From NCBI GenBank assembly GCA_016934515.1, contig JAFGSR010000168.1, forward strand, positions 31,875 to 95,874: DNA of 64,000 bases, given 5' to 3'. The position numbers and the translations under genes were made by a program. Of the stretch, positions 2,331 through 47,100 are shown in pieces (positions within the stretch are counted from its first letter, which is position 1; each line of letters opens with the position of its first letter). The stretch comes from Sedimentisphaerales bacterium. GTDB taxonomy: Bacteria; Planctomycetota; Phycisphaerae; Sedimentisphaerales; SM23-30. The notes beneath the pieces are model-generated. The model searched no databases and was not told the origin of the DNA. It saw only the letters and a program-made list of their open reading frames with translations.

Positions 2331-3018
2331 GGCTGACATTATTGGCAAAATGTCGCTGAGATTATTCCCCGACGCAACGCTGTGTGTTGGTGATGACGAG
2401 GTTGACCAGTATTCCCGGCACACGAAAAATTTGCTGGTCCACCCGGCAGCCCTTGTGGGGATGGGGCCGCTCCGTCAGTGGATATTGGACAATGTTGCCG
2501 ATCCGTGCGTGGTGATGATTGACGATGATATTTCTGTGTGCTACTCGCAGGTCGGTTTTCACAAGCGGCGGATCGAAGACCCGGCAGAAGTGCAGGCGAT
2601 TGTCGAGCGTCTGGGACATCTCGCTCAGGACATTGGTGACTGTGTTTTCGGCTTTGCACAATCGGCACGACCTATGGCGTATGCGAATTTCTCGCCGTTC
2701 TCTCTGGATACCTGGGTGGGCACGGTGGCGGGTATGAATGGCCGGTCGCTGAGCTACGATACCCGGTTGATGTTGCGTGGCGAAGATATTGACCTGACTT
2801 TACAGGCGTTGTTGCATCACCGCTTTGTGCTGGCGGAGTGTCGCTACTATTTTGCCCATGCGATGTTTAAGCTGAAGGGGGGCAACGCCGTCAATCGGAG
2901 TTCGGAGCGTCACCGGGCGGAAACGGAGTATATGCTGAAAAAGTGGCGGGGGCATCTGGTTTCCAGAGAAACCAAGGGCGGAGCTGATCGGCTGGTGGTC
3001 CGGGTAAAACGAAAATAA
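2302..3018 (+). CDS. GT-A glycosyltransferase, TET-associated/GREB1-like phage family
   Basis: VIPTKGRA, RQWILD, VMIDDDI (DxD), EDIDLTLQAL, GGN motifs; directly after ParB gene; GGGAG RBS before ATG 2302. Confidence 0.72.
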   Translation: MQMVIPTKGRADIIGKMSLRLFPDATLCVGDDEVDQYSRHTKNLLVHPAALVGMGPLRQWILDNVADPCVVMIDDDISVCYSQVGFHKRRIEDPAEVQAIVERLGHLAQDIGDCVFGFAQSARPMAYANFSPFSLDTWVGTVAGMNGRSLSYDTRLMLRGEDIDLTLQALLHHRFVLAECRYYFAHAMFKLKGGNAVNRSSERHRAETEYMLKKWRGHLVSRETKGGADRLVVRVKRK

Positions 3019-3043
3019 ATCTTTAATAAATATTTTTTCCAGC

Positions 3044-3077
3044 TTGACGCAAGGTAATCGTGTGCTAAGTTTAAGTA
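3044..3077 (+). promoter_or_regulatory. Sigma70-like phage promoter, copy A
   Basis: TTGACG-N16-TAAGTT with extended -10 TG; shares CGTGTGCTAAGTTTAAGTA with copy B. Confidence 0.65.
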
Positions 3078-3132
3078 AAGCAAGGTACTTTATTACTTAT
3101 TTAGTCACGTTTATTTTAAGAAAGGTGTAGCC

Positions 3133-3729
3133 ATGGGTTATCAGATTAGAACAATGAACAATTACGATTTTTTCGAGGTGGCGTCTGCGATGCAAAAGGC
3201 CATTCGCCGGGGCGATGGGCGTTTGGCTTCATATTGGGCATTGGAATTGTACGACAGCAAGTTTGAGGCTTATGTTTGGCGGCGGCTCCATATTATATCG
3301 GCTGAGGACGTTTGGGGCTGCATCACGTTTGAGATTGAGGCTTTGTATAACGCCTGGAAGCTGCTGAGGCAACAGGACAAGAAAGCCAAGCCCTTTTGTG
3401 GGGCGGGCAGGTTGTTTGCGGTCAAGGCGGCAATGTTGCTGGCCATGGCCAAAAAAAGCCGGGACGCTGACAATATGATAAATCTGGTTTTCAATCCCAA
3501 AAAAATCAGTGACGCAGACCTTGAGCGAGATTTGGCAATATCTCGCCAGAATCGTGAGGATATTCCGGATTATGCTTTTGATTGTCATACGAGAATCGGA
3601 AAACAAGCCGGAAAAACAAAAGATGAGTTTATGGTTGAGGAGCATGACGCTTTATATCCCCGCGAAAAAGGTTTGTTCGATCAAGACGTTGAAGATTTAA
3701 GGAAAAAAAATCAAAGAAAAAAAGGTTGA
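3133..3729 (+). CDS. Stand-alone RarA/MgsA C-terminal-like domain protein (no ATPase domain)
   Basis: SAMQKAIRRGD...YVWRRLHIISAEDV resembles RarA SA(F/L)xKSxRGSD...RRLxxxAxEDIG; IPDYAFDCHT; no Walker A. Confidence 0.7.
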   Translation: MGYQIRTMNNYDFFEVASAMQKAIRRGDGRLASYWALELYDSKFEAYVWRRLHIISAEDVWGCITFEIEALYNAWKLLRQQDKKAKPFCGAGRLFAVKAAMLLAMAKKSRDADNMINLVFNPKKISDADLERDLAISRQNREDIPDYAFDCHTRIGKQAGKTKDEFMVEEHDALYPREKGLFDQDVEDLRKKNQRKKG

Positions 3730-23057: not shown

Positions 23058-24166
23058 TTATGGGTTTTTCTGTATTACCTTTAGATACCACCAATGACTC
23101 AGTTATTATTTCAGCGGCTTACAATGAGCTGGTGGATGCCACTAACGAGTTTGCCAACATTTGGGGTGGGCCGGATGCTTATACCAAAATCGAAAGCCCG
23201 CAAGTCATTGACCGAAGCATATTCTCTAGCTTGAAAAACGCAGCCAAGGTTAGAGCTTATAATTACGCCTACATTGCTGTTGACCCGCCGGATAATTTTA
23301 CAAGAGTTCCGTGGGCGGATATTTGTCAGGAGTTGTTTGGCACTAGTGATTGGCCGGTTCGTAGTGGCAACAAGCAGAAAATTATCAAGGCTGAAATGAA
23401 TGACATTTACGAAGTAATCTGCTGGTCAAATAATAAATGGTACAAGGGTGCTATTGCGGCGGGGAGTGGTTGGGGCAGACTGACAACGGGTTATGTATAT
23501 CAGCCGGAATTTGGCGAAGAACCGACCATTCCCCCGGAATGGGCTTATGATACCAGGGAGGCTGCTGCTGATGCTTATGATGCTTACATAGCAGAGCCAT
23601 ATATCACAACGGGAGGTTCTCCGTATGATAATTATTTTTACGGTGGGTCTTCCGGCACAACTTTTGTTTGGAATAATCCGTATGGTCCAGAAAAAAAATA
23701 TGCAGTCGTTACCGACGTTCCCGGTGGACGCACTAAAGACGAGCAGACCATTTGTCGTATCCTGACGCCAAATTGTGCGGACATTGCCAGTGTGGTAGCT
23801 GAGGGTGTTGTGGGAAATTATTACGGTTATTCCGTAGAAGGTCCCGGTATTTACGAGCCTAACGCTCACGCATGGTCAGCTCAGTTGTACTTTGGTACTG
23901 ACACGCCGCCAGACAACTTTGAGGAGTTTCGTGAATATGGTGTTGAATGGGGAATAGCTTCTGGTCTTGGCCAGCCAGAAGCAAATAAAGCTACTGTTTT
24001 GTTAAGTAACGAGATTCCGATGAATACTTTTTTGTTTGTTCGCGTTGCTGGCAGGGGTCAAATTTACGGCGATTTAGACGATGTTGCATGGGGCAATGTA
24101 ACTCCATGGCGAACATCTTTTTATGTGACTGATTTTTGGTTTCAGCTCCGGTGGGAATATAGCTGA
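23048..24166 (+). CDS. Last late gene, putative receptor-binding/structural protein
   Basis: 372-aa aromatic-rich ORF overlapping the previous gene. Confidence 0.55.
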   Translation: MALIMGFSVLPLDTTNDSVIISAAYNELVDATNEFANIWGGPDAYTKIESPQVIDRSIFSSLKNAAKVRAYNYAYIAVDPPDNFTRVPWADICQELFGTSDWPVRSGNKQKIIKAEMNDIYEVICWSNNKWYKGAIAAGSGWGRLTTGYVYQPEFGEEPTIPPEWAYDTREAAADAYDAYIAEPYITTGGSPYDNYFYGGSSGTTFVWNNPYGPEKKYAVVTDVPGGRTKDEQTICRILTPNCADIASVVAEGVVGNYYGYSVEGPGIYEPNAHAWSAQLYFGTDTPPDNFEEFREYGVEWGIASGLGQPEANKATVLLSNEIPMNTFLFVRVAGRGQIYGDLDDVAWGNVTPWRTSFYVTDFWFQLRWEYS

Positions 24167-24192
24167 GCCTGTCCGCTTGAGGACGGGCAAAA
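24167..24192. terminator. Hairpin after late operon; A-run suggests it terminates the minus-strand CRISPR transcript
   Basis: GCCTGTCC-GCTTGA-GGACGGGC followed by AAAA. Confidence 0.45.
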
Positions 24193-24194
24193 GA

Positions 24195-24258
24195 GTTACC
24201 AGGCTGCCCTGATGAGGGCATTGCCGGAAATCTACGCATCCGTCAGGGGGTGCATTAG
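24195..24258 (+). repeat. 64-bp direct repeat, left copy, flanking CRISPR-cas cassette
   Basis: 56/64 identical by hand alignment to 31906-31970. Confidence 0.85.
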
Positions 24259-24281
24259 CCCACGCCCCCGCATGGGGCGAC
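24252..24281 (-). CRISPR. Degenerate type I-C-like repeat (relic)
   Basis: Minus strand GTCGCCCCATGCGGGGGCGTGGGCTAATGC vs I-C pattern GTCGCnCCnnnnGnGGGnGCGTGGATTGAAAC; 33 nt from the terminal array repeat. Confidence 0.7.
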
Positions 24282-24314
24282 ATTAAGTTTCGGGGCAAGT
24301 GGATAGATTCCGGT

Positions 24315-25333
24315 GTTTCCATCCACCCCCACACGTGTGGGGACAATGACACAGCATCCCCCGGCACCCCTGGACATACGGTTCACCCCCACACGCGTGG
24401 GGACAATGCTGTCCACTGGTTTTACCAAACTCACACGCCGGTTCACCCCCACACGCGTGGGGACAATCACGCCTCGATAATCTTAATCAGACCATCTAAT
24501 CGGTTCACCCCCACACGCGTGGGGACAATTTGCCGTACCGCTTTGCGACTCCGCCGGATTCGCGGTTCACCCCCACACGCGTGGGGACAATTAAACGCTT
24601 CCGGAATAGTAATTGCGGGTATATCGGTTCACCCCCACACGCGTGGGGACAATGTAATTGTAGGGCTGCTGATTAAAGGCAACGGTCGGTTCACCCCCAC
24701 ACGCGTGGGGACAATCTCAAAGCGTGCATCCAACGCACAACAATTTACGGTTCACCCCCACACGCGTGGGGACAATGACGCCTTTTTAAGCCGATATTTG
24801 CGATTGCTGCGGTTCACCCCCACACGCGTGGGGACAATTATTTGCGGCGACTGCTTAGAGGTGATGAAAACCGGTTCACCCCCACACGCGTGGGGACAAT
24901 GAAACCCATCGGTCCCCGGCCCGATATTATTACGGTTCACCCCCACACGCGTGGGGACAATACACCGGGCGGGAAAGTTTTCCAGAGATATCGGCGGTTC
25001 ACCCCCACACGCGTGGGGACAATGCCTCCATCTACAACTGTAATCTCGAACCAGTCGGTTCACCCCCACACGCGTGGGGACAATTTGCATCTTTGACGCC
25101 TGAATCTGTGGATCTTATCGGTTCACCCCCACACGCGTGGGGACAATGGGTGTTCCGACCGCTAGCGGGCGTTCGTGTTTTCGGTTCACCCCCACACGCG
25201 TGGGGACAATGCCGGCGGCGTCCAGGTAGATATAAATATTGGCCGGTTCACCCCCACACGCGTGGGGACAATGTTATCAAAATCAAACAACAGCGCGGCA
25301 TGCTCGGTTCACCCCCACACGCGTGGGGACAAT
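24315..25333 (-). CRISPR. Type I-E CRISPR array: 16 identical 29-bp repeats plus 1 variant terminal repeat, 16 spacers of 31-34 bp
   Basis: Repeat (minus) ATTGTCCCCACGCGTGTGGGGGTGAACCG; + strand starts 24379, 24439, 24501, 24563, 24625, 24687, 24748, 24810, 24872, 24933, 24995, 25056, 25119, 25182, 25244, 25305; variant at 24315-24347. Confidence 0.98.
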
Positions 25334-25381: not shown

Positions 25382-25690
25382 TTATTTAACTTCTGAAGAT
25401 GATAAATTCTTTTTTAAAGATAATTTCTTGATTAGCGTGAGTCCCTCCATTTCAGTCAAAATATAACGGCTATCGCCAAGCGAACGCCATTGATAGCCCT
25501 GCGCACAGGGATAATCCCATATTTGTAAAATATAACCCTGCTTACGTTTTTCCACGGCTTTTTCCCAGAGGATATCCCGTATTCTGACCGTTGGATTACC
25601 CAGAAATACGCCGCTGATCGGTTCGATCAGCCATCGAGACAGCTCGCCCTTCAAGCTCGCCGGAACGTTCTGTAAGATCATCACTAGCAT
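25382..25690 (-). CDS. cas2: Type I-E Cas2
   Basis: MLVMILQNVPASLKGELSRWLIEPISGVFLG...RDILW; overlaps cas1 3' end. Confidence 0.93.
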   Translation of the reverse strand: MLVMILQNVPASLKGELSRWLIEPISGVFLGNPTVRIRDILWEKAVEKRKQGYILQIWDYPCAQGYQWRSLGDSRYILTEMEGLTLIKKLSLKKNLSSSEVK

Positions 25691-26501
25691 CGAGCACCTC
25701 CGCTATATCCGGTAAAATTTTTTGCATAAGTTTTAACTCCCGAATTTTTTCTCTACATAGCGTCCGTGCTCTGCGTTCCACTTCTATGGTTCTTTGGGCC
25801 GTCTGAAATGCCACCGGGATCACCAGATCCGTTCTGTACAGATCCGCAATATCATAGACAAAGCTGAGCATTTTCCCGGTGTGAATAAAACCGATAGCCG
25901 GAGAATAGCCCGCCGACAGAATCGCCGCATGACATATTCCATAAAGACATGCGCTGGCCGCCGAGAGCGAGCGGTTAACCGGATCGGCATAATCCCACTT
26001 ATCCTGATCGTAATTACGACCATCCCAGCGAATCCCCCAGGTTTTGGCATTTTCTTCATAGGCAGCCCGCACACGATAGCCCTCTTTACCCCGTAAGGTT
26101 TCCAGAGACGTATCTTCCGGAATGATTTCCGGAAATCGCTTCTGATACATTCGCCGGGCCACCGCCAAACGCTGCTTTTCATCAACATACAATCGGGCCT
26201 GTTGTAATAAACGGTGGCTGGAATGTGTTCCGCCGGTACCGTGGGCATAAAGCCGGGTGCCGTCCTGCCCCGTCCAACAGATCATACAGTTATTTCCCGC
26301 CAGCGCCTTAAAAGCAGCGTGCGTAACGGAACTGCCCGGCCCCAGCATCACCAGAGAAAGTTGATCGATGGGGATGGGCATTTTCCCGGATTTATCACTG
26401 AACGTCAGAGAACCGGCGGTCCGGTCCAGCTTGCCCATTTCCAGGTACAGATGACTCCAACGGTCCTGGAATTTGGGAATTTCATGTAAATTTCTCGCCA
26501 T
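25596..26501 (-). CDS. cas1: Type I-E Cas1
   Basis: LGPGSSVTHAA, LRGKEGYRVR, GYSPAIGFIHTG, FVYDIADLY; GGAGG before ATG 26501. Confidence 0.96.
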   Translation of the reverse strand: MARNLHEIPKFQDRWSHLYLEMGKLDRTAGSLTFSDKSGKMPIPIDQLSLVMLGPGSSVTHAAFKALAGNNCMICWTGQDGTRLYAHGTGGTHSSHRLLQQARLYVDEKQRLAVARRMYQKRFPEIIPEDTSLETLRGKEGYRVRAAYEENAKTWGIRWDGRNYDQDKWDYADPVNRSLSAASACLYGICHAAILSAGYSPAIGFIHTGKMLSFVYDIADLYRTDLVIPVAFQTAQRTIEVERRARTLCREKIRELKLMQKILPDIAEVLDASDDLTERSGELEGRAVSMADRTDQRRISG

Positions 26502-26594
26502 GTTTCTACCCTCCAAATAAAGATGCATCCAATGAATCCTTACTACTAGAAAAAGAAACGCCTATTCACTTACCAAAGAACCTCTCCCCCGGCC

Positions 26595-27365
26595 TCACTG
26601 CACCGGGGCAATCGATAATAATCCAAAGCCAAACGCCTTGCCCGGACCAATGCCCCTGACCAATGTTTCGCGAAAAGCATTGGGATTAATAATTTCAAGT
26701 ATGCCCTCGTATCGAGCGGATCGGAGCCGCTGTCCCTTTCCTGCCTCATTTGTTTTGTTCATATACACATATCCCGGCTGGATAATCATATCATCACCGA
26801 GAGTAAACCCACACTTTTCACCCTTATGAACCAGCCATTCAAAAAGCTCTTCATTTGGCACCGAAACGCGTTTTCCATGCCGTCCTTTCTTGGACGTCCG
26901 TTCCTCGCTTGTAAGTGACTGTTTTTCTTGCTTACTGATAGTATCGATCTTTTTTGTTGGATTCGCCATCAATCGAAAACGGAATCTCTGGCCATTCTCG
27001 ATCGATGGAGTATATTTTTTCACTTTGTATGGAGCCGCCAGAAGGAAACCGGCATTATGAAAGGCATAATCCCAATCCGGTTCAATAGCCGACAAGACAA
27101 GTATCACCACATTTCCAGCCGGTTGCGGATCAATACGAAACAGAAAACCGTTTTCCGTTCCACGCTTGACATGAACCTGCCCTTCGCCGAAATTCGTGGG
27201 ATTGTAGGGCTTGAGAAAATGTTCATCGTTCCGGACACGTTCTTTCGACGGAAACGCCATGCACAACCGCTGATGCACACGGTATAAATTCCGCAGCCAC
27301 AATCGTCCCGGTCGTGGACGATCGGGATTGCTCCCCGTATCGATGAGCAATGTCGAGATAAACAT
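26595..27365 (-). CDS. cas6e: Type I-E Cas6e (CasE/Cse3)
   Basis: YRVHQRL, FRLMANPT, C-terminal GIGPGKAFGFGLLSI G-loop. Confidence 0.95.
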   Translation of the reverse strand: MFISTLLIDTGSNPDRPRPGRLWLRNLYRVHQRLCMAFPSKERVRNDEHFLKPYNPTNFGEGQVHVKRGTENGFLFRIDPQPAGNVVILVLSAIEPDWDYAFHNAGFLLAAPYKVKKYTPSIENGQRFRFRLMANPTKKIDTISKQEKQSLTSEERTSKKGRHGKRVSVPNEELFEWLVHKGEKCGFTLGDDMIIQPGYVYMNKTNEAGKGQRLRSARYEGILEIINPNAFRETLVRGIGPGKAFGFGLLSIAPVQ

Positions 27366-28465
27366 TATTCCACCTCCTCTGCCGAGAGTCTGCGCCGCCT
27401 TGTCTGTATTGAACGGAACATGATTATTTCTCTCCGCTTCTTAATGATCTCGTCGCGCCATTGCGGCTCTTCGGGGTTGATGCGGTCCATGCCCATACCA
27501 AGACCATATTCGAGCATGGTGACGGCGTCATGGCAGAGTCGGCAAAGAGATCGCAAGTCGTCATGGGTTTCATCCCCACCCGCCCGTCGATATGTGATAT
27601 GTTGCACAGTGGTCGCCGGAGATTTACATAAAACGCATAAGTGATGGTCGTGGTCAAGCCGTTCAGATCGAGCTTGACGATAGGCGGAGTTGACATAGTT
27701 TGCCCTGGGCCGTGAGGGTGCTGGCGTATGGTGCTGAATCGGTTGCGACTCCAGAGCCACATCGCCATCCCTACCCACGTGCAGTGAACCGCCAATAACG
27801 AAGCGAGCTTCATGCGCCGGCGGGTCAAAACTCACAGGAACATCATACCAGATTTCCGCATCCGCAGGGGCTTCGGTCTGTGAGGCCGACGGTCGCCAGT
27901 CACAAAGGTAATCAAGCGTTTGCGGAGCGGCGTCCTGCCTGCAACGTTTGCGCCAAGGGACCGCTTTCAGAGCAGTGAGTACATCAGGATAATCACCGCC
28001 TTTGGACTCCAAAAGAGGACGCGACGGCGGACAAGATTTGCGGCCCAGATAGAGCGGCCAGCATGGCGCTGCCAAAGCATCTGAAAGTTTGCCAATCAAG
28101 AAAGGCTCGCCCTGTAGAACTACCAGAAAGGAGGCGTCGCAAAGATACTCCCGACGTGTGAGCATAGCGCCGGATTTAGATTCTCCCTTGGCTGTGCGCA
28201 TCTGCATTTTGGCTCCAACCGTGTGATAATCCCACCATCTAATACCAGCCCGGTCGATACGCACACCCATCGTCAAGGCGGCCAGTCTCGGCAACCATTC
28301 GACGGAGGCTTCGGCACGAGTGATACCTAACGCTGCACAGAGTATCCCGATAACCGCCGACTTGGTCGGGGCGGGTCCGGTTCGCCGCACGACGAATTTA
28401 CTTTGGTGATCGCCCCAGGCCTGCATCGGACCTTCGAGGCGAAGATAAATTGTATTTATAGTCAT
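27365..28465 (-). CDS. cas5: Type I-E Cas5 with C-terminal HNH nuclease domain
   Basis: LRLEGPMQAWG, PTKSAVIGILCAALG, YLCDASF, LYLGRKSCPPS, then CVLC..VQHITY..ETHDDLRSLCRLCH; ATG 28465 overlaps cas7 stop. Confidence 0.93.
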   Translation of the reverse strand: MTINTIYLRLEGPMQAWGDHQSKFVVRRTGPAPTKSAVIGILCAALGITRAEASVEWLPRLAALTMGVRIDRAGIRWWDYHTVGAKMQMRTAKGESKSGAMLTRREYLCDASFLVVLQGEPFLIGKLSDALAAPCWPLYLGRKSCPPSRPLLESKGGDYPDVLTALKAVPWRKRCRQDAAPQTLDYLCDWRPSASQTEAPADAEIWYDVPVSFDPPAHEARFVIGGSLHVGRDGDVALESQPIQHHTPAPSRPRANYVNSAYRQARSERLDHDHHLCVLCKSPATTVQHITYRRAGGDETHDDLRSLCRLCHDAVTMLEYGLGMGMDRINPEEPQWRDEIIKKRREIIMFRSIQTRRRRLSAEEVE

Positions 28466-29652
28466 CAGCAAACCTCCGGATTGACAATTTCTTTCTGTAC
28501 TTCGCTCCAGTCAAAGCCAATCGTTCTGATGACGGCGGGAATCAACTCGTCCAGCGATTTGATCTTTTCTCCTTCGAGTAAAATTTCACTTTTATTTTCC
28601 ACAACCTGCAAAGCATGTCGATTATTAGGTGAGAACCAGAAACGCTGTTGTGGCTTTCCATAGCCGATTTCCATATCGTAAACATATTGGCTCAGTTGGG
28701 CGACACTCTGCTTGATAAGATCGCGTTCACCATGTTCGACCGGATTAGCAAAGGCGTTGGCGTAGCTAACGGGATTACCTTTCTTCTTGATTTCTATCAA
28801 GATACCATCAGGATGGTTATGAGCGGCATGGCTGTTCTGTTTGCCTGAAGGATTAGTCTTGGCAGCACCATACAAGAAAGCACCGACGGTGTGGGCGGCT
28901 AGTTGTTCATTACCGTCTAGGTTTCTAAGAAGTTGTTCCCAGTGAATGGCGAAATACTTGTAGAAGCATGCCGAGGCGTAGAGGGCCTCGCCGATATGGG
29001 CACCGCCTGCGTCTTCACCAGGAACATCATCGGCGGCAACGAAATAATCCACTTCCGGTCGCGCTTCATGGGTACTGATAGCATGAGCAACCTGCGCCGC
29101 AGCTTCGACGGTTAAATTCAATCCTTTCCAGACGCCTTTGCCGTTATCTCCGCCCTTAGGTTCGAGCATCCGGCCAAAAAGAGCCATGTCAGGAATATAA
29201 ACATGCTCGGCGATCTGATGGGCAAACTGAGTGGCGGTTTCCTTGTCGGACTTATTCTCTTTAAATAGTTGCTTCATTTTATCAATCGCCTTATTGCTGA
29301 CATACACGATCCCGGCGCTCTTGTCATCATCGGCGGCGATGTCCGCTTCGGCCTTCGCTTTTCTTTTTTTCGCTTTAGGAGCAATGCCGCAAAGCTCAAG
29401 TACTTTCATCGCCCGCTTGAAATCTTCACTGTCGCCGTTTGCACCGGCAATTACCTGTGCCAGCCGCCGCGTTCGCAATCCGCCAAGCAAAGGTTTGAAT
29501 TCCTTGCTAATGCGGATGCTACGCTTAATACATTGGCTGGAGATGCGAGAGCGCAACACGCCTCCGAAATAGCAGGTCTTTGGGGCCCCCAGATCGTCCC
29601 GGTTAAGATTGGCCGGGCTGTGATTTTGAACCATGTGCATTTCAATTAACAT
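28465..29652 (-). CDS. cas7: Type I-E Cas7 (CasC/Cse4)
   Basis: NLNRDDLGAPK, RISSQCIKR, DMALFGRM, QVAHAISTH, PSGKQNSHA. Confidence 0.96.
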   Translation of the reverse strand: MLIEMHMVQNHSPANLNRDDLGAPKTCYFGGVLRSRISSQCIKRSIRISKEFKPLLGGLRTRRLAQVIAGANGDSEDFKRAMKVLELCGIAPKAKKRKAKAEADIAADDDKSAGIVYVSNKAIDKMKQLFKENKSDKETATQFAHQIAEHVYIPDMALFGRMLEPKGGDNGKGVWKGLNLTVEAAAQVAHAISTHEARPEVDYFVAADDVPGEDAGGAHIGEALYASACFYKYFAIHWEQLLRNLDGNEQLAAHTVGAFLYGAAKTNPSGKQNSHAAHNHPDGILIEIKKKGNPVSYANAFANPVEHGERDLIKQSVAQLSQYVYDMEIGYGKPQQRFWFSPNNRHALQVVENKSEILLEGEKIKSLDELIPAVIRTIGFDWSEVQKEIVNPEVC

Positions 29653-30146
29653 CAGAGTCTCCTTTCAAGGTATTGTAAATATTGTTCGGCCCATTGACGC
29701 CGTTTGTTTGGACGTCGCCAGATGGAAATATCATCAGTCAATCTTACCCAGTCGAGCTTGAGTTCACTGGATGCAATAGTATCCAGAGCCCATTGCAGCA
29801 CCGGTTCGATGCGGTCAAATGGCAGCATAAGCAATTCGTCGAATTTACGTCGGCGGCGATTCGCTTCCCTGTTATCCTTCACTCGACAGCGGGCGAGTTG
29901 CCCCGCCAACAGTGCCCCGGCATCATGCTCAATGGGACAATAAGCGTAAAGTTTGGCGATCAGCCAGGCTGCTCCACGCCAGGGCGTTTTGGGATCTTTC
30001 TGTCTCAGCGGCCACCATAGGCCCGCAAAGAGATCGAAGGCATCCACCGACTCATCCAGACTTCGACCTGAATGGCTGCGCAGCAAACTCAGATCGCCGT
30101 TTTGTAAACTACTCAAGACTTGGATATATCTCTCGGTTGCGATCAT
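29652..30146 (-). CDS. cas11: Type I-E Cas11 (CasB/Cse2)
   Basis: Helical 164 aa; LDWVRLTDDISIW..RRQWAEQY; between cas8e and cas7. Confidence 0.88.
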   Translation of the reverse strand: MIATERYIQVLSSLQNGDLSLLRSHSGRSLDESVDAFDLFAGLWWPLRQKDPKTPWRGAAWLIAKLYAYCPIEHDAGALLAGQLARCRVKDNREANRRRRKFDELLMLPFDRIEPVLQWALDTIASSELKLDWVRLTDDISIWRRPNKRRQWAEQYLQYLERRL

Positions 30147-31570
30147 GCATCGGCTCCTTTCTTGCGACCAGCGCGGTCCGTTGCGATTATTTTGGGTTTC
30201 ATATTGGGCTTGACGGCAGCAATCTCACGACGCCTCTGTACTTCAACGGTTGTATAGCCGGGTGCGAGCGATTGTGCGACAACGGACATCATGGGGCTAT
30301 AATCCCCGGCAACCTGCTCCCATGCCTCCGGCTCACCAGTCAATAATGCGTGTATCTTGTCAAAAACCTGCGTCTCGATATGAGGTCTAACTGAATCAAT
30401 CATTGGACGAATCTCTGCATGTTTGCGTGATGATTTCTTAGGTTTACAACGGCTTATAAGCTTGCTGTTTTCTTTGCTCCAATAATCAATCTTCTCAATA
30501 GCCTTTTGAGGATTGAAAGAATCCGTATTCACATTAAAAGATACTTCGCATTTTTTTGCTTCGATGTATTTATCATTTTGGACAGTAGCAAAACTAACAG
30601 CAATAAACCTATGAGGACTAATCGCATTCTTTTGTATAAGTGCTCCTATCACTAACTTAGTCCATCGCCCAGAAGCTGCATCATAAGCTTTTAATGAATC
30701 GTTTGGCTTTAGAACGTTTTTGTTGTCATAAATAACATGTGGATCGTCCCAGTTCCTTCTCTCATCAACAGACTCTGCTTTTGTACTGCCGATGCCAGCA
30801 AATACCGATTGCTTTATGAGTTTTGCTTTGACTCCACAGGCAATGCAGTTTTCCTCGTCTGTTTTGGGAGTATCCAGCCATACTCTCCTAGGCAGCCATG
30901 TAAGCCCAGTCAGCAATGCCACCTTCCCTTTTGCTGGAAGCTGAATATCAGGTTTTACCCAGGCAGGTTCCCCAAAATCATTTTGTTTTTGATCTTGCCA
31001 TGAAAGCAACAATGACTCAAAAAGGCAAGAACCCAAAGGAATAATATAGATTGGTGGTTTTGAATTGATGCCCGGTGGTTTACCCCTCCCGCCAGATGTA
31101 GCAAATGATGGTAAGCGTAATAAACCTTTAGCGCAACAAGCAGGACACAAACCATTATCTTTATCCTTAGAATGGCAAAAATGATACCAATTTGAACCTG
31201 TAGGTATTTCCTGCATCAGATAATTAGCGGTAAGCTTATCAGGTTCCCCGGTTTTAGCTTGATATTGATAGAACCGCTTTCCATCGCCGAACAGGTTAAA
31301 ACAATCACGGTTCTCATCGAGTTTGGTGAACCAATCATCTGGAAACGACTTCTCGGCGTAGGCGGATACATAGTCAGGTGGATTACCCTTGCACCAATAC
31401 AATAGCGCCAGTAGAAATCGGAAAATCGCCACACGGTCCATCGGATTACTGGCCGCGATTTGGCGAATCCTGTGGGCATCAGTCAATGCTTGAAAAATTC
31501 CAACTCGGTCATATTTGCCATTACGATAAAGAACCGGTATCCATTTCTCATCTAGTAAATTATAGTTCAT
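30143..31570 (-). CDS. cas8e: Type I-E Cas8e (CasA/Cse1)
   Basis: YNLLDEKWIPV, RFLLALLY, FNLFGDGKRFYQ, WLPRRVWL, DPHV. Confidence 0.92.
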   Translation of the reverse strand: MNYNLLDEKWIPVLYRNGKYDRVGIFQALTDAHRIRQIAASNPMDRVAIFRFLLALLYWCKGNPPDYVSAYAEKSFPDDWFTKLDENRDCFNLFGDGKRFYQYQAKTGEPDKLTANYLMQEIPTGSNWYHFCHSKDKDNGLCPACCAKGLLRLPSFATSGGRGKPPGINSKPPIYIIPLGSCLFESLLLSWQDQKQNDFGEPAWVKPDIQLPAKGKVALLTGLTWLPRRVWLDTPKTDEENCIACGVKAKLIKQSVFAGIGSTKAESVDERRNWDDPHVIYDNKNVLKPNDSLKAYDAASGRWTKLVIGALIQKNAISPHRFIAVSFATVQNDKYIEAKKCEVSFNVNTDSFNPQKAIEKIDYWSKENSKLISRCKPKKSSRKHAEIRPMIDSVRPHIETQVFDKIHALLTGEPEAWEQVAGDYSPMMSVVAQSLAPGYTTVEVQRRREIAAVKPNMKPKIIATDRAGRKKGADA

Positions 31571-31770: not shown

Positions 31771-31905
31771 TTAAGAATTCACGGCCAAAGCCAGCATTTG
31801 TTGCCACAATGTAATCCGCCTGAGCGAAAAAAGCAACGGTTTTTGTGGATAATATCGGTAACTCTTTGTGGCGTATGGCGTTGAAGAGCGGTATTCAGGG
31901 TGAGG

Positions 31906-31970
31906 GTTACCAGGCTGCCGGGCTGGGGGCATTGCAGGAAAACTACGCATCCGTCTGGGGGGTGGATTAG
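31906..31970 (+). repeat. 65-bp direct repeat, right copy
   Basis: GTTACCAGGCTGCC...GGGCATTGC.GGAAA.CTACGCATCCGTC.GGGGG..ATTAG shared with 24195-24258. Confidence 0.85.
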
Positions 31971-32372
31971 GGGTCGTCTTGCCATTATTGGGCAGGTGCG
32001 GGTGCGAAGAGTTCGGGCGGGTGGGAGGGGATTGGAGACAGAAAACAGTTGATTTTATGAATTTAGCCACCTAACAAGCACATCGTATTCGCTATAACCT
32101 ATTATGTTGTAGGGAGATACAAAAACGTACCATAATTCTATTCTTTGAATCATATAAATTTGTGAATTTTCACTTTTTTTTAATCAACAATTTGGCTTTT
32201 GAAACGCCTATTAAAAATTAGCACCTGTGGTCTGTTTTTAAACTGAAGAAGGGACAGATAAAACTCAATAAAACCGACAATATTATCCTTGCATTACCGT
32301 TTAATGTCTGTTAAAATAAACAATAATCACTTTTTCACGGACGAAAACAACACTTTTTGCAGGAGAAAAACC

Positions 32373-32981
32373 ATGTTCCACAAAGCAAAACTTTTTACCA
32401 TAGCTTTAACCGGATTTGTGGTATTTTTTGCAAATTGTACCAAAGCCGATGTACTAACTTTTGATGATATAGGAACCACACCAATTGATGCTGAACCTAT
32501 CCCAGATGGATATGGAGGATTCGATTGGTATACTATTTTGTATCTCGACCCATCCATTGTAACCGTAGATTCAGGTTATGCTAATGGCATAGTATCGGGA
32601 GATTATGTGGCACTTGTAAGTAATTATTCTCATGAAGGTATAGGATGGCTTACCGGTAACCCATTCACATTCAATGGCGCTTACTTTACATCGGTTTGGC
32701 GAGACGACCTTAATATCCAGGTTGACGGTTATCTCGATAACAGCCTCATCTACACGACTACTGTAACAATTGACACGATCGATCCAGTGTGGTTCCAGTT
32801 CGAATATGAAAATATCGATGAACTAAAATTTTCTGCTTCCGGTGGTACAGTTCACGATGGCTATATATGGGACAATACCCAGTTTGTGATTGATAACTTC
32901 TCATACATCCCGGAACCATCAACAATTTTACTGTTTACTTTCGGGGGGCTTCTGTTGAAAAGAATCCACAAGCAACTTTAA
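32373..32981 (+). CDS. PEP-CTERM sorting-domain protein
   Basis: Signal peptide; LTFDD..IPDGYGGFDW; C-terminal IPEPSTILLFTFGGLLLKR; AGGAG RBS. Confidence 0.9.
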   Translation: MFHKAKLFTIALTGFVVFFANCTKADVLTFDDIGTTPIDAEPIPDGYGGFDWYTILYLDPSIVTVDSGYANGIVSGDYVALVSNYSHEGIGWLTGNPFTFNGAYFTSVWRDDLNIQVDGYLDNSLIYTTTVTIDTIDPVWFQFEYENIDELKFSASGGTVHDGYIWDNTQFVIDNFSYIPEPSTILLFTFGGLLLKRIHKQL

Positions 32982-33020
32982 TCTAATCAATTCACTAATT
33001 TTTTTTCAGGAGGAACAAGA

Positions 33021-36000
33021 ATGTTCAACACAAACTCTATCAACACAAAAAAATTATCGGTCGTTTTCTTAGCAATAATTCTTTTGTCAATATTAACAAC
33101 AACCGCAAACGCAAAATCTATTTACGCTATTACAGATCATGGTTATAGAAATGTGCCACCGTTTAGTGCTCCCGCCAAGATTACCGCATACAATATTGAT
33201 AGTGACAAAATAGACTTCCAGAATATTTATACGCTTAACCAGAGTGATTACCCAACAGGAATGTTTCGCGGGCCTGTAGGTTTGGCAATTGATTTAGATT
33301 CGGGATATATATTTTGTACCCACGAAAACTATCCGGACCCTGAAAAGGTGGAAGGCTTGAGAGGCATTCAATTAATCAATGGAAAATCGCTTACCGACGA
33401 AGGTGTATTGGAAATCCCCGGCACTCCCGACTTATCCGGTGTTGTTTATGACCATAAACGCCAAAAAGTATATTCTGTTGAGCGGGGCTCGGGGGAATTA
33501 TATGTTTTGGATTGGGATGCTCAGGAAGCATCACTTACCCTGCAAGGGAGCGGGCCGGTAATATTAAAGGATTCTCTTGACGTTGAAATTAGCGGTGGAG
33601 GTCTGGCATTGGATGAAACCGATGATATTTTATATGTAACTCAATTGTCAAGCGGAGGTCATTCGGGCGCATCTAACATAGTCTATTGTTACGACCCAAA
33701 CGATTGGACCTATATAGATAGTATCGAAATCTACAACCTTGGATCGACAGAACTTAATGCAGTAGGAGTTGCGGTATATAACGATGGCGTGGAAACAAAT
33801 TACCTTTACACCGGCGCCTGGGGCTTTAGTGGCAGTCATAATTACCTGGTAAGAACCGATTTGAATCTATACGAGGCTGATTCTGAAGAGCCTAACAGTT
33901 TCCGGTTTGCCAAGGACATCGGCACAAATGTTGCCGGAATAGCCGTGGACCCCAATACCGGCCTGGTTTACGTGACCACCTCTGACAATCAGGTAGCGGT
34001 CTTTGATACCTCTAACTGGACATCCGACCCTAACCAAACCATCGAGCCCAACGATTCCGAAACCTACATGGTTCACGGACCGGCTGGCATTGCTGTGGGG
34101 TCCCAGTACAAACCGCGGTGGTTGCATATTGAAAAAACCGATAATATAGATACGGAAGAATGTATCTCGCCCGAAGCGGCTGACCCAAACATTACTTATA
34201 CTATCGTTTTCAGGCCGTTAGGTTACGATGCCAACGATGTTTTGATTACGGATTATCTGCCCTGGGGTGTGGATTTTTACTCAGCTAATCCGGATAGTGG
34301 TACTTGGGATCCTGAAACCCGCACCTACACCTGGTATCGTTCTGCTATCGACGCGAACGACCCGAACGAAGAACTTGAGTTAGTAGTACAGGTGAATACC
34401 CTGGCCATGCCGGGCGGGACGATAACCAACGAAGTGGAAATAGAAAGCCAGAATTATTTCAACTGGACTACCGAAGATACCGACATCTGCTGTTGGGGCG
34501 GCAATATCATTTACGTCGATGCCAGTCTCGGCGACTTCGGTCTCAACAACGGCACCTCATGGAGCCTTGCCTATACCAGCATTCAGGATGCTATGGACCG
34601 AGCAAGTGGCGGCTGTTACGATACCTGGCAAATATGGGTCGCCCAGGGCACCTATACACCGGACACAGACGATGACACGTTCGAGTTGGAGCCAAACCTC
34701 GCCCTCTACGGCGGTTTTCCTTCAGGCGGCGGCACCTGGGGCAGCCGCAAGCCGGGTATCTACGAAACCATACTCTCCGGCCAGGTAAGCCAAGATGAAA
34801 AATGCAGCGCTGTCGTAACCGCCGACGGCGTAAACTCAACCGCGGTAATTGACGGCTTTGTAATTCAGGACGGCTCGGACTACGGCATCTCCTGCACCAA
34901 CACCGCCTACCCGATTATCGCCAACTGTCGGGTGCAGGCCAACGGTAATTACACAGCGTACGACGCCGGAATTTATTGCAACAATTCCGAGCCAAACATC
35001 GTCAACTGTATCGTTAAACATAATCGCTCGCACGGCATCTATTTTTATAATAATTCCGATGTGTCGATAACGAACTGCGTGGTTGAATCAAATAGTAATA
35101 ACGGCATCTACTGTAACGATGACTCCAACCCGATAATCACCAATTGCACCATTGAATATAACAGCGGCACCGGTATATATTGCGACGACTCCGACCCGAA
35201 TATAATCAATTGCCTCATCAACGGCAATAACGAAGACGGCGTTTATTGTGGAAATGATTCCGACCTCTTAATCATCGGCTCCATTATCGAAAACAACGGC
35301 GATAACGGCATCGAGTGTTCCCATTACTCGGCTTCGATAGACGTCTCCACCAGCAAAATTCGCGATAACGATGCTCATGGCATCTATTGTCTTTCTTCAT
35401 CCGCAGCCATCATCAAAAACAACTGGATAAATCACAACAAATCCGATGGCCTGCGACTATACAGCACCTCTCCCTCAACCGTTCGCAACAATACCATTGT
35501 TTATAATGAAAATTATGGCATCTACCAAACCGCCGGTACCGCCAACATCAGCAACTGTATCCTCTGGGGCAACAACACACAATTAGGCGGCAATTGCACC
35601 GCAACCTACAGTTGCATAGAAAACGGCAACGACGAAAACGGCAATATCAACCAAGACCCGAACTTTGCCTACAAGAACCCCGAATCCTTTAACTTCCATC
35701 TCAGTCCCGTTTCACCCTGCATCGACAAGGGAAATTCAACCGACATTTCCGACGAAACCGACATCGACGGCGACTATCGTGTGTTGGATGACGATGTCGA
35801 TATGGGTGCCGACGAATTCGCCTGCTACGACGTATTCAACCAGGCTGATTTCAATGCCGACGGCGTCGTAAATCTGATCGACTATTCCTACTTAGCTGGC
35901 GTCTGGATGGACGTCAGCAACGAACCCAATTGGGTCCCCGATTATGACTTGGTCGCCGACAACCAGATAGACCTGCTCGATCTGAACGCTTTCGACAACA

Positions 36001-36425
36001 ACTACCTCTGGTTCGCCTGCTGGAATGATGCTGAATTACCTGGTGCTATGAAAAGCACCATGGGCATGGACGGTGATTCTTCCAACAATCGTTCTTCAGC
36101 TTTACTTTCCCAATCCCTTTCACTCTCCGCTTACCAACCTAAAGAATTACAAATTGAAGTTACCAAAGAACTTCTGAACGATGGCACCAAGATAGAGCTT
36201 TTCTTCTACGCAAACGAACCTCTCGCCAAAATAACCACCGATCCCCAGGGCAACATAACCGGCTTCGTCGGCTATCTGGACAATGGCTATCGGGTGGAAC
36301 TCATCAGCACCTATGACAATCAAGGCAACGAAACCAGTGCTATCTACACCCACTACGATGCCGACAATAATATTATCCTGACAGAAAAAATGGAAGATGA
36401 ACTGCTGCTTCAAAAGGAGGAATAA
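33021..36425 (+). CDS. Secreted multidomain protein (beta-propeller, DUF11-like, right-handed beta-helix, dockerin-like)
   Basis: Signal peptide; GLAID/GIAVD blades; ITDYLPWGV; NCIIxxNxxxGIYC repeats; SPCIDKG; ADFNADGVVNLIDY. Confidence 0.85.
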   Translation: MFNTNSINTKKLSVVFLAIILLSILTTTANAKSIYAITDHGYRNVPPFSAPAKITAYNIDSDKIDFQNIYTLNQSDYPTGMFRGPVGLAIDLDSGYIFCTHENYPDPEKVEGLRGIQLINGKSLTDEGVLEIPGTPDLSGVVYDHKRQKVYSVERGSGELYVLDWDAQEASLTLQGSGPVILKDSLDVEISGGGLALDETDDILYVTQLSSGGHSGASNIVYCYDPNDWTYIDSIEIYNLGSTELNAVGVAVYNDGVETNYLYTGAWGFSGSHNYLVRTDLNLYEADSEEPNSFRFAKDIGTNVAGIAVDPNTGLVYVTTSDNQVAVFDTSNWTSDPNQTIEPNDSETYMVHGPAGIAVGSQYKPRWLHIEKTDNIDTEECISPEAADPNITYTIVFRPLGYDANDVLITDYLPWGVDFYSANPDSGTWDPETRTYTWYRSAIDANDPNEELELVVQVNTLAMPGGTITNEVEIESQNYFNWTTEDTDICCWGGNIIYVDASLGDFGLNNGTSWSLAYTSIQDAMDRASGGCYDTWQIWVAQGTYTPDTDDDTFELEPNLALYGGFPSGGGTWGSRKPGIYETILSGQVSQDEKCSAVVTADGVNSTAVIDGFVIQDGSDYGISCTNTAYPIIANCRVQANGNYTAYDAGIYCNNSEPNIVNCIVKHNRSHGIYFYNNSDVSITNCVVESNSNNGIYCNDDSNPIITNCTIEYNSGTGIYCDDSDPNIINCLINGNNEDGVYCGNDSDLLIIGSIIENNGDNGIECSHYSASIDVSTSKIRDNDAHGIYCLSSSAAIIKNNWINHNKSDGLRLYSTSPSTVRNNTIVYNENYGIYQTAGTANISNCILWGNNTQLGGNCTATYSCIENGNDENGNINQDPNFAYKNPESFNFHLSPVSPCIDKGNSTDISDETDIDGDYRVLDDDVDMGADEFACYDVFNQADFNADGVVNLIDYSYLAGVWMDVSNEPNWVPDYDLVADNQIDLLDLNAFDNNYLWFACWNDAELPGAMKSTMGMDGDSSNNRSSALLSQSLSLSAYQPKELQIEVTKELLNDGTKIELFFYANEPLAKITTDPQGNITGFVGYLDNGYRVELISTYDNQGNETSAIYTHYDADNNIILTEKMEDELLLQKEE

Positions 36426-37426: not shown

Positions 37427-37466
37427 TCCCGAACGCAGCGCTCTAGCCAAGCTGAGCTACTCCCCG
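37427..37466 (-). tRNA. 5' half of tRNA-Pro(CGG), truncated after the anticodon loop (prophage att junction)
   Basis: CGGGGAG TA GCTC AGCTTGGCTA GAGC G CTGCG TTCGGGA then unrelated AT-rich DNA; no 3' anticodon stem, T arm or acceptor. Confidence 0.85.
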
Positions 37467-37488
37467 TAGCATAATTCCAACAGAGATG

Positions 37489-44119: not shown

Positions 44120-47100
44120 TTAATTTTGTTCCCCAATATCGGTGCCTGAGCCAATGTAGCGTAAAAGCAAATCAATTTCATTTTCAAAACCAATTTGTCT
44201 CATAAATAATTCATAACCTTGCTGTTCGGCAAAGAGCCGATAGCTGTTGCGCGCCTTGAATTCCTGTTCCTCCAGGGTCATATCATAATTATATCCCATC
44301 AAGTTAGCCGGCTCGGCGGTGTTGATTTCTGTGGCATGTTCCAACCCCAGAATATGGCCTAATTCGTGGGCACCCGTATTGGCCAAAGCGTTAACCGTTT
44401 CCAGGAAACGTTCGGTGGGATCCTCCGACATCTCCGATAGATATCCGAAAGCGATTTCATCGGTTAATACGATTGCCATATCGGTGTGGTCTTCATTGTG
44501 ACGATCCAGCTTTTGTGCCAAACCATAAAGGCCCAGCATAGGTGTGGTTCCACCAAAAATCACTGTCGAATATACCGCACCGGCCTGGGGTTTTTCGGTA
44601 ACAAATTCAATCTCGTCTTCAGTTAAACCGACATTGCGATAGATTTCTTCGATACGATCGGCAATCGCCTGAATCAATGATTCACGCATCCCGTCAAGTT
44701 CAAACGCTTCAGCGTCAAAAGCCGGGCGGTTAACAACATTTGGTCCCCAGCCCATATCAGCTTCTTTAAACAAATAATCTGCTCGTGCCCCGTCGAAAGC
44801 CAACCAAACAAGTTGCGACGGCGGAGTTTCCACGGCTTCCGGTTCGGTGGTTTCGATGGTCAACTGATAGGCGATAACTTCAGAGAAGTTTTGCAGAGAA
44901 TATCCTGTTACTACCACGTAATAGGTGCCCATACCATTCTCGGCGGGATCGATTACTACCGACTCATGGTTGGGCATGCTGAAAATCGCCTGAGCTTCGT
45001 AAAGCGTGTCGGCATTTTGGGCGGCACCGGTAGCCAGGACATCGTCGGCCTCATCCATAATAGTAGTTAATGCTTCATAGTCACCGTTGTAAATAGCAAC
45101 ATATAACTCAACATCATCTCGACCGAACAGGACTTCGGAATCCAGATCTACGGTTACTCGCTGACCTTCTTCCAGCCGGAAACTGTAAACATCCACGTCG
45201 AGAAGATTACCCAGACAGGAACTGATTACCACGCTGCCCGCCTGCCCCGGCTCCAGCAGGGTGCCGGTAACTTTTTCTACCGGAAGATAACATTCGGCAC
45301 TAACAGGATTATTTAACAAATCCACATTGTAACGATAAACTTGTGGATTATCTTCGTCCTGAACCAACTCGTCATTACCCCAATCCAGTGGTTCCAGATT
45401 TACAGGTCCATTGGTCGGATAGACCTGGCTGTAAGGTAAGCCGCTGGCAGTGGTGTCCGAACCAAAATCACTGTTACCATCGTTGAAGACCAGGACCTCA
45501 AGGTTGTATCTGCCCAACGGGGAATCGACTCCGCCTGCCAGGAAGTCAACTTCACCTACCCAGAAATATCCCGGATCAAGCGAATTGCGGAAAAGATTGC
45601 TGCTTACATTCAATAAATAATCACCGTCTTCAGGAACCTCAAACAGTGCATTTAGTTCTCCGGTGCCTGTCCAACTGGTTACCAGAGACAATGTTCGCTG
45701 GCTGTTTGCCAGGACCATAAGGTCGCTGGTGGTACCAAAGTAGATCGTCATACTGTCCGTCGAACCGCCACCCGGTACCGAGTGATTGGTGTGGATCAAT
45801 ATAGAAATATCATCGTCACCAAAAGTTTCAATGGATCCGTTGAGAGAATCGCTAATCTGCACCGAATCTACCAGAGCACTTGCATCACCCACCCAGTTGA
45901 TGTCGTCAATTTCAAGCAGGATATCACCCTGGCCTGTAGTATAGGTAACATTAAACTGATAGAATCCGCCTTCCGGTGTTACATCGCTATTGCCAATCGT
46001 ACTGGAAACGGTAAGGCCTCCCAGATTGGTGGATGAACTGCCAAAGGTGTGGTTGGTGGATGCCTGGCCATTTATGCTGACCTGAACGACATCGTCAACC
46101 GGGCTGCCCGAAGTGGAGCGTACCAGAAAACCCGGCGTATTAAAGGCAGCCATGTCAAAGCTGATATCGCTGTATTCCCCGCCAGCCGGCAGGGGCATTA
46201 CCAATTCCATTCGGCTGCCATATTCGGTGTTTCTGATATCAGTGAAGATTTCCACTATGTTATTTGAAACGTTTTCAATTCCGTAAAGACTGCCGTCGGG
46301 AGCAAAATCAATCCCGATTATTTCTATATTGGTACCTGGATTGGCCAGGTTATCCATCTCGTCACCCACCGCAGCGGCTTTGCCAAATTCCGGATTAATT
46401 TTCAATTGATTATTAATCTGGGGTACTTTCTTTCGGGTATCAATCTTAACTAGTGTCTGAGTAACCTGATCAATGCCATACATGCAACCGTTATTTATGC
46501 TGCTACCGGGTATGTCACCGTATGCCAGGGATACAATATCCGTAAAACCATAAAATTCCAGATCCTGTTCCGATAATTGCAGGTCTGCATACGGATCTAT
46601 TATATTAGAAATAGACAACAGGGAATCGCGCGTGGTCGAATTGCCCGTTACCGGCACGATAGTTATGGATACGACTGCGAACAATTCATCAATCCCCAGA
46701 TTTTCATCAGTAGATCCAAACTCCAGGGCTAGAATATCATCTATTGTCAGAGTGGCAGTTGTACCTGTACCGTACACCGATGCGTTGACGAGGTCGCTTA
46801 AAACCGTCCTGGTTAAAACCACATCGTCATCGGTTTCCGTCGTCGGGTCCAGCGGATTGGGATCGACAAAAATCGGCCGGGTATCAAAAGAAAATGTGCT
46901 TATCAGGGCAAAGGTCTCCAGGCTCGAATCGTAGCCTAAGGCATCGTAATTGATGGTGACCAGGGCGTCATTAAAATCATTCAGCAAATCAAATTCACCG
47001 GCCTGGATCAATCCAATTCTAGTGTCAAGAATAATCTCACCGGTCAGAACTTCATTTTTTAAATCATCCAGCAATTCCGCAGTCAACACCTGGGCAAGTG

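Follow-up and report, generated by a model that had tools for sequence, protein, structure and literature searches.

A type I-E HNH-Cascade array that ends in type I-C-type repeat sequence in a Sedimentisphaerales prophage

Results

A Cas5-HNH cassette within a prophage

The stretch of DNA analysed here, 64,000 nt long and called the window from this point on, comes from a Sedimentisphaerales bacterium (GCA_016934515.1, labelled G000; contig JAFGSR010000168.1, positions 31,875-95,874 of the forward strand). The features of its CRISPR-Cas locus are collected in Table 1. The effector operon, cas8e-cas11-cas7-cas5HNH-cas6e without cas3, has the gene set that defines the type I-E Cas5-HNH Cascades. 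Since the Cas5e-HNH protein matches the Cas5-HNH of the solved structure PDB 8YB6 at an E-value of 2e-126, the effector is of a known kind. In the alignment with 8YB6, the His, Asp and His residues of the HNH region fall on their counterparts, and RNA-guided DNA cleavage is the putative activity. The cas3-less gene set, the Cas5e-HNH fusion and the 29-nt I-E repeat are all shared with the systems described in the accessible text of PMC10910872 and PMC11794572. The locus in the window differs from these in lying within a prophage between 68-nt direct repeats and in ending in foreign repeats, which 37 of 38 trailers of relatives, taken from the best matches, do not have.

Table 1. Features of the CRISPR-Cas locus and its surroundings (positions in the window)
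Feature	Position	Strand	Remarks
Direct repeat, copy 1	24192-24258		67 nt; starts where the I-C likeness of the relic ends
Relic I-C-type repeat	24260-24281	minus	6-bp hairpin plus TGG; 3' end missing
Putative old spacer	24282-24314	minus	33 nt; starts ACCG; 9-bp pairing with the upstream tail predicted
Chimeric terminal repeat	24315-24347	minus	33 nt; I-E over 24 nt (1 mismatch), then 9 nt that match the I-C end at 8/9
Type I-E array body	24348-25333	minus	16 identical 29-nt repeats and 16 spacers
cas2e (25382-25690) and cas1e (25596-26528)	25382-26528	minus	
cas8e, cas11, cas7e, cas5e-HNH (27365-28471), cas6e	26595-31570	minus	no cas3 in the operon
Direct repeat, copy 2	31903-31970		68 nt long, with 85% identity to copy 1; some 330 nt upstream of cas8e
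attR	37427-37471		45-nt exact copy of part of the tRNA-Pro gene, which lies upstream of the window (C8:21215-21259)

An integrase beside the tRNA-Pro gene, together with the 45-nt copy of part of that gene, places the cassette within a prophage of about 48 kb, whose terminase, portal, head and tail genes lie inside the window. Two other Cas5-HNH loci (L012 and L013, 66% and 60% identical) are found on viral contigs, L012 being near genes that look phage-head-like by eye; the occurrence of HNH-Cascade in phages is more than a one-off.

The direct repeats bound the whole 7.6-kb cas cassette, with the relic inside them. Their fold differs between the two copies, and copy 1 holds a weak terminator-like stem (minus strand, 24213-24198). 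No third copy was found in the genome, in 60 relatives, in viral contigs (strict pattern) or in the other loci compared, and the presence of only two copies in the genome speaks against a dispersed element. Transposons that target arrays exist, according to the available excerpts of PMC11837452; the cassette contains no transposase. We read the direct repeats as a putative scar left when the cassette entered the prophage. Two genes that do not look phage-like lie between the cassette and attR, inside the prophage (32289-36425), one encoding 230 aa with no family match and the other a beta-helix/DUF11 protein of 1134 aa. Outside the prophage, the window also contains a minus-strand open frame of 4203 aa (44120-56731).

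The old end of the array

The far end of a CRISPR array is its oldest part. In the window, the 88 nt below the last I-E spacer (24347-24260) carry type I-C repeat sequence. Three pieces, a chimeric terminal repeat, a spacer-length stretch and a relic repeat, make up this end, and they are real and more than chance. An earlier reading from the sequence only had the terminal repeat starting as I-E and ending as I-C. Its sequence and coordinates were given correctly, the I-E hairpin is indeed kept, and the tail does agree with I-C at 8 of 9 positions. The chimeric repeat is predicted to fold into a hairpin of -11.7 kcal/mol, equal to that of the normal repeat, followed by an 11-nt overhang. Beyond it lie exactly the 33 nt claimed as a spacer, a length that does not separate the two subtypes, as it is compatible with the I-C spacers of G019, a genome of the same family (32-37 nt), and with the I-E spacers of the window array (31-34 nt) alike. 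Because this stretch starts with ACCG, which chance gives about once in 256, an alternative reading of the terminal repeat is an unbroken I-E repeat that carries an insertion of 8 nt.

The relic has the 5' GTCGC and the GC hairpin closed before TGG that are features of I-C repeats; the 3' GATTGAAAC end of such repeats is absent from it and stands, at 8/9, on the chimeric repeat instead. The sequence-only reading had drawn the relic from 24281 to 24252. The letters are as quoted there, but the likeness to I-C stops at about 24260, and since copy 1 of the direct repeat begins where it stops, 24258-24252 is direct repeat and not decayed CRISPR repeat. Relative to type I-C repeats as known from G019 and from the accessible text of PMC5965381, the window shares the GTCGC start, the GC hairpin, the GCG-TGG at the hairpin base, the 11-nt tail and the 33-nt spacer, a length that I-E spacers have too. 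It differs in that the relic is 1-2 nt shorter than most and lacks the last 8-9 nt, in that the I-C tail has one mismatch and sits on an I-E hairpin, and in the lack of I-C genes in the assembly.

Likeness to type I-C repeats

Subtypes were classified by purpose-built weight matrices. The I-C position-weight model comprises 110 distinct I-C-type repeats of viral contigs, from at least 114 loci matching the I-C consensus; as the training repeats were picked by the very consensus under test, its scores measure likeness to that consensus. On this model the relic has 27.3 bits, compared with a training median of 27.0 and with 5.2 for the true I-E repeat of the window. Out of 9,022,178 positions in the genome, only the relic reaches 27.3 bits, the next best having 20.2. 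None of 20,000 mononucleotide shuffles and none of 20,000 shuffles that preserve the GC hairpin match it, so the comparison with shuffled GC-rich hairpins that the sequence-only reading had named as a check brought no refutation. The 11-nt tail of the chimeric repeat has 14.9 bits; 45 of 9.0 million positions score as high or higher. Among other pairs of tail and hairpin spaced 30-40 nt apart in the genome, none exceeds 7.3.

A second matrix was made from 24 I-E repeats of relatives. The relic reaches about 6.5-7.5 bits on it, against 42.1 for the true I-E repeat, and falls within the range of true I-C repeats (median 3.7, 90th percentile 8.3). It is in the I-E register too, at 63 nt and with 17/29 identity. 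As the best I-C score among 9.0 million positions and a poor I-E one, the relic lives up to its description as a decayed I-C match, and by these scores the identification of both pieces, the chimeric tail and the relic, as I-C-type repeat sequence is supported. Contigs C6, C23, C100, C157, C163 and C204 of the assembly carry a small family of GC hairpins, which we take to be REP-like, sharing the GTCGCCC start with I-C repeats.

The repeat family is assigned to subtype I-C because the 98 I-C-type repeats of G019 adjoin a Cas1 that passes the type I-C cut-off; the Cas7 and Cas5 beside that array have I-C models as their best, yet remain below cut-off. Among 19 I-C arrays with a readable end, four, G019 included, close with a copy in which the 5' part is retained and the 3' end is gone, and a fifth has an internal deletion. 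In the case of the window, the truncation of the relic coincides with the start of the direct repeat and may thus be an effect of the junction rather than a signature of an array end.

No working I-C locus (cas5c, cas8c, cas7c, cas3, cas4, cas1c, cas2) is present in the assembly, which is 87.8% complete, and tblastn with seven G019 proteins gave no match in it. The assembly has a single cas1 gene. Upstream of cas8e there is no I-C leader, repeat or gene remnant, nor is there an I-C repeat elsewhere in the assembly. A profile search with PF09709 gave no match anywhere, its positive controls being blank as well. Of 80 genomes with HNH-Cascade, 13 do contain I-C-type repeats, 11 of them in five copies or more, which gives an opportunity for joining I-E to I-C.

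Spacer targets, expression and processing

Type I-C systems use TTC as PAM, according to the available text of PMC8482600. A search for a protospacer of the old spacer with a 5'-TTC PAM, another check that had been proposed, came back empty in the genome, the loci compared, phages and viral contigs. The best match in the genome has 24 of 33 positions, while shuffled controls reach 22-23; 50,697 annotated phages hold no protospacer; and a 17-nt exact scan of viral contigs yields two with an 18-nt run, 22/33 overall and no TTC, which is chance level. In the prophage and the cas promoter, no PAM-plus-seed match of note was found for this spacer. Nor does any of the 16 I-E spacers exceed 24 matches in the genome. 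A longer duplication that would include the old spacer was considered and rejected, as on neither side does the direct repeat continue to a significant degree (shuffle fractions 0.215 and 0.882).

The predicted 9-bp pairing between tail and spacer is equalled in 351 of 20,000 shuffles and by 3 of 95 real G019 spacers; judged by pairing probability, 3 of 1,000 shuffles are as good. For a type II-C system, the accessible part of PMC12080349 names alterations of the extra repeat, and a hairpin that covers the guide, as routes to the silencing of extraneous crRNA. Both features are predicted in the window, a type I locus, where the 9-bp stem is modestly unusual and would make a modest fit to the silencing of an extra guide.

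As the excerpts of PMC5965381 have it, the tag left by Cas6e is 8 nt long and that left by Cas5d 11 nt, Cas5d reading the base of the stem and the overhang. The 11-nt overhang of the chimeric repeat means that a host Cas5c might cut there, and its I-E hairpin, at unchanged energy, would cap the last I-E guide. The relic is without the 3' overhang, the feature that Cas5d reads. No promoter-like site occurs within 23900-24500, and an Rfam search returned nothing above gathering score. The I-C-type unit is likely inert.

Recurrence among HNH-Cascade loci

To see the trailers of related loci, 162 loci with a Cas5-HNH relative were gathered, the matches being limited to the best 80 of 267 and the best 80 of 123; 38 non-redundant loci among them have an array and at least 150 readable nt beyond it. 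Within this set of best matches, one trailer of 38 (L149) contains an I-C repeat and 37 contain none. L149, from a Dehalococcoidia assembly, has 21 I-E repeats, a 32-nt spacer and then a near-complete I-C repeat (L149:7833-7864), which scores 27.9 bits on the I-C model, the next best of the 38 trailers from the best matches having 13.3. It is the sole exact I-C-type repeat of its assembly, and enzyme-like genes come next. In the other 37 trailers of these best matches, the best tail score is 5.3, as against 14.9 in the window, and 9 of the 38 loci have a terminal I-E repeat broken at its 3' end.

The Cas5-HNH of L149 is 64% identical to that of the window and not its sister. A FastTree tree of 52 proteins places the window protein beside L026 and L027 (support 1.0) and L149 beside L134 (0.998); the window and L149 proteins are 0.71 substitutions per site apart. 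As both repeats differ between the two loci as well, independent origins are likely, and the two events were probably independent. L026 and L027, the closest relatives among the matches considered, end within their arrays, which leaves their trailers unreadable. The Cas5-HNH of L026 is 91% identical to that of the window, and its repeat is the same; the 2.4 kb upstream of its cas7 (L026:1-2400) give no match to cas8e or cas11, as in a truncated or split operon.

A strict pattern for the hybrid end had no match in 401 genomes of the same phylum, taken irrespective of I-E array content. In the class of genome G453 it matched 3 of 301 genomes, of which only G453 is real, and in viral contigs it matched one contig. 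A looser pattern gave 24 matches in viral contigs, where only the contig of the strict search is I-E-like. The reverse order, I-C followed by I-E, had no match under the strict pattern, and an unmutated form of the chimeric repeat occurs in none of 345 loci.

Mixed units in viral contigs

Of the 114 viral loci considered, out of at least 114 in total, 82 have a single exact I-C repeat, some with decayed neighbours. Two units combine the subtypes. L316 (IMGVR_UViG_3300045918_000356, 2899-3145) comprises a promoter-like site, an I-E repeat, a spacer and a short-stem I-C repeat, followed by what appears by eye as a hairpin with a T run, on which the terminator scan made no call; judging from the size of the 8 ORFs considered in 6 kb, no cas-sized gene adjoins it. 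L254 (IMGVR_UViG_3300038318_000271, 251-390; 530 nt read) has an I-C repeat and, about 20 nt beyond it, an I-E repeat, which is followed by a spacer and a decayed I-E repeat.

No close relatives of the prophage were found, the gene beside the trailer having no homologue but itself. The next gene has homologues of 30-48% identity in 25 of 250 other genomes of the order. Twenty regions near those homologues (291,450 bases) contain no I-C or I-E repeat and no direct repeat, 17.7 bits being the best I-C score, and no relative with an intact I-C array at the same site was found.

Discussion

Origin of the foreign array end

The reading we prefer, with a probability of roughly 0.6, is that the final spacer and closing repeat of an otherwise lost I-C array survive in the window; a short-homology crossover would have attached them to the I-E array, and they would now be inert. 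One cell would have held both an I-E HNH-Cascade array and, in the same orientation, an I-C array. A crossover at the shared GTG would then have put the 3' part of the second-last I-C repeat behind the 5' part of an I-E repeat, and the rest of the I-C locus would have been lost, be it by deletion between neighbours or by replacement. The cassette, relic included, would later have entered the prophage between the two 68-nt repeats. The I-E half of the chimeric repeat would have been preserved by its role as the 3' hairpin of the last functional I-E guide, whereas RNA from further downstream would carry a foreign tail folded on its own spacer and is predicted to load poorly.

How the joining took place was put too specifically in the sequence-only reading, which had HNH-Cascade recombining into a pre-existing I-C array through a shared GGGG(C/G)GTG core. 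In favour of such recombination are the I-C type of both pieces, the link to G019 and the recurrence in L149; insertion at this position fares less well, as the assembly shows no I-C genes, leader or upstream repeats. A simple insertion would leave the leader-side part of the I-C array upstream, where none is found, which makes a deletion joining tandem loci, or a replacement by two crossovers, the better fit. The same product could come from such a deletion between an I-E and an I-C locus or from the capture of a phage I-C mini-array, and these fit as well. As for the core, the shared GTG does lie within a looser run of G, but GTG is all of the exact overlap at the junction. This would be too short for ordinary homologous recombination and suggests a short-homology crossover or a replication slip rather than a RecA-type exchange. 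The array end is likely a record of one CRISPR subtype supplanting another, as far as the repeats can tell.

An array end is not the only possible source of an I-C unit in a prophage. Solitary repeat units (Racr, PMC10651486) and small arrays (Cracr, bioRxiv 10.1101/2024.10.29.618823) of phages act as RNA anti-CRISPRs, and co-encoded Cracrs always address systems of the same type, in the accessible text of these sources. The unit could be the phage's own mini-array, or a Racr- or Cracr-like RNA, meant for a host I-C system, with the HNH-Cascade array recombined onto its first repeat. We consider this unlikely. In its favour, Racrs and Cracrs include, in that text, repeat-like units in prophages with type I-C among them, the locus sits in a prophage, single I-C repeats are common in viral contigs, where L316 and L254 provide mixed units as well, and the geometry of the chimeric repeat, with exactly 11 nt after the hairpin, is that of I-C. 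Against it, the unit does not stand alone as a Racr or Cracr does, being fused below a working array of another subtype, with no promoter-like site of its own found and no match to a cas promoter. The tail has a mismatch and is predicted to pair with the spacer, the relic is without the overhang read by Cas5d, the assembly contains no I-C genes, and no notable PAM-plus-seed match exists in the prophage or the cas promoter. None of the 20 regions beside the distant homologues of the neighbouring gene holds an I-C repeat, in phages that are only 30-48% alike there. What tips the choice towards an array end is that the relic lies inside the direct repeats together with the cassette, and that L149 has the same arrangement outside any evident phage. 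Even as a phage unit, it may still yield I-C-type RNA in a host that bears Cas5c.

Ordinary decay would do without type I-C altogether. What comes after a broken or insertion-bearing terminal I-E repeat would be either a REP-like hairpin or an ancient I-E repeat, and the likeness to I-C would be coincidental. The I-E register of the relic and the ACCG after the tail lend themselves to this, as do the 3'-broken terminal repeats of 9 of 38 relatives from the best matches; the genome also has five other REP-like TGTCGCCC..GGGC hairpins, plus a sixth, and 23 of 25 nt agree between the relic and the C6 copy. All five copies, however, continue with T where the relic continues with GTGG, and none reaches 20 bits on the I-C model, while the I-E score of the relic is one that true I-C repeats also have. 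Tails as good as that of the window are not seen in the 37 other trailers from the best matches. Decay would, moreover, need two independent I-C features at spacer distance, and L149 shows that the arrangement occurs. We therefore regard decay alone as improbable.

A bolder proposal is that phages build mixed-subtype transcripts, that HNH-Cascade cassettes land on I-C units, and that one transcript feeds both the phage's HNH-Cascade and, by way of its last unit, a host I-C Cascade, as guide or decoy. It supposes that I-E and I-C repeats are similar enough for fusion in register, and draws on phage mini-arrays that have them in both orders (L316 and L254). For the present it is a long shot.

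Relation to known array ends

Terminal repeats are the most changed part of arrays, and recombination shapes arrays, as stated in the accessible portions of PMC12839519 and PMC4524480. The arrays treated there have one repeat type each; the array end in the window has two. In the excerpts of PMC12839519, repeats with more than nine mismatches were removed from the survey, and the terms 'chimeric' and 'hybrid' do not appear. Taken with PMC7145637, PMC6360697, PMC8482600 and bioRxiv 10.1101/2022.05.19.492656, the available text of these sources reports mutations in terminal repeats, recombination of arrays, and hybrid cas loci that keep to one repeat type. A full-text search of a literature collection with few subscription journals turned up no description of an array that closes in a chimeric repeat of two subtypes. 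The foreign-subtype array end is real and recurrent, a new form of the known decay and recombination of array ends.

Conclusions

Functional stakes are low unless the last unit is expressed. The cas-free mixed units of phages, L316 and L254, make the better lead. The trailer in the window is likely a tidy rather than surprising record of CRISPR replacement. Array-finding programs dismiss such ends as noise. If foreign repeats do survive at array ends, trailers could be mined for which subtype replaced which, and a junction of two repeat types resolved to the base could tell how. With one of 38 trailers of relatives, from the best matches, and the window itself showing a foreign end, a wide survey is feasible.
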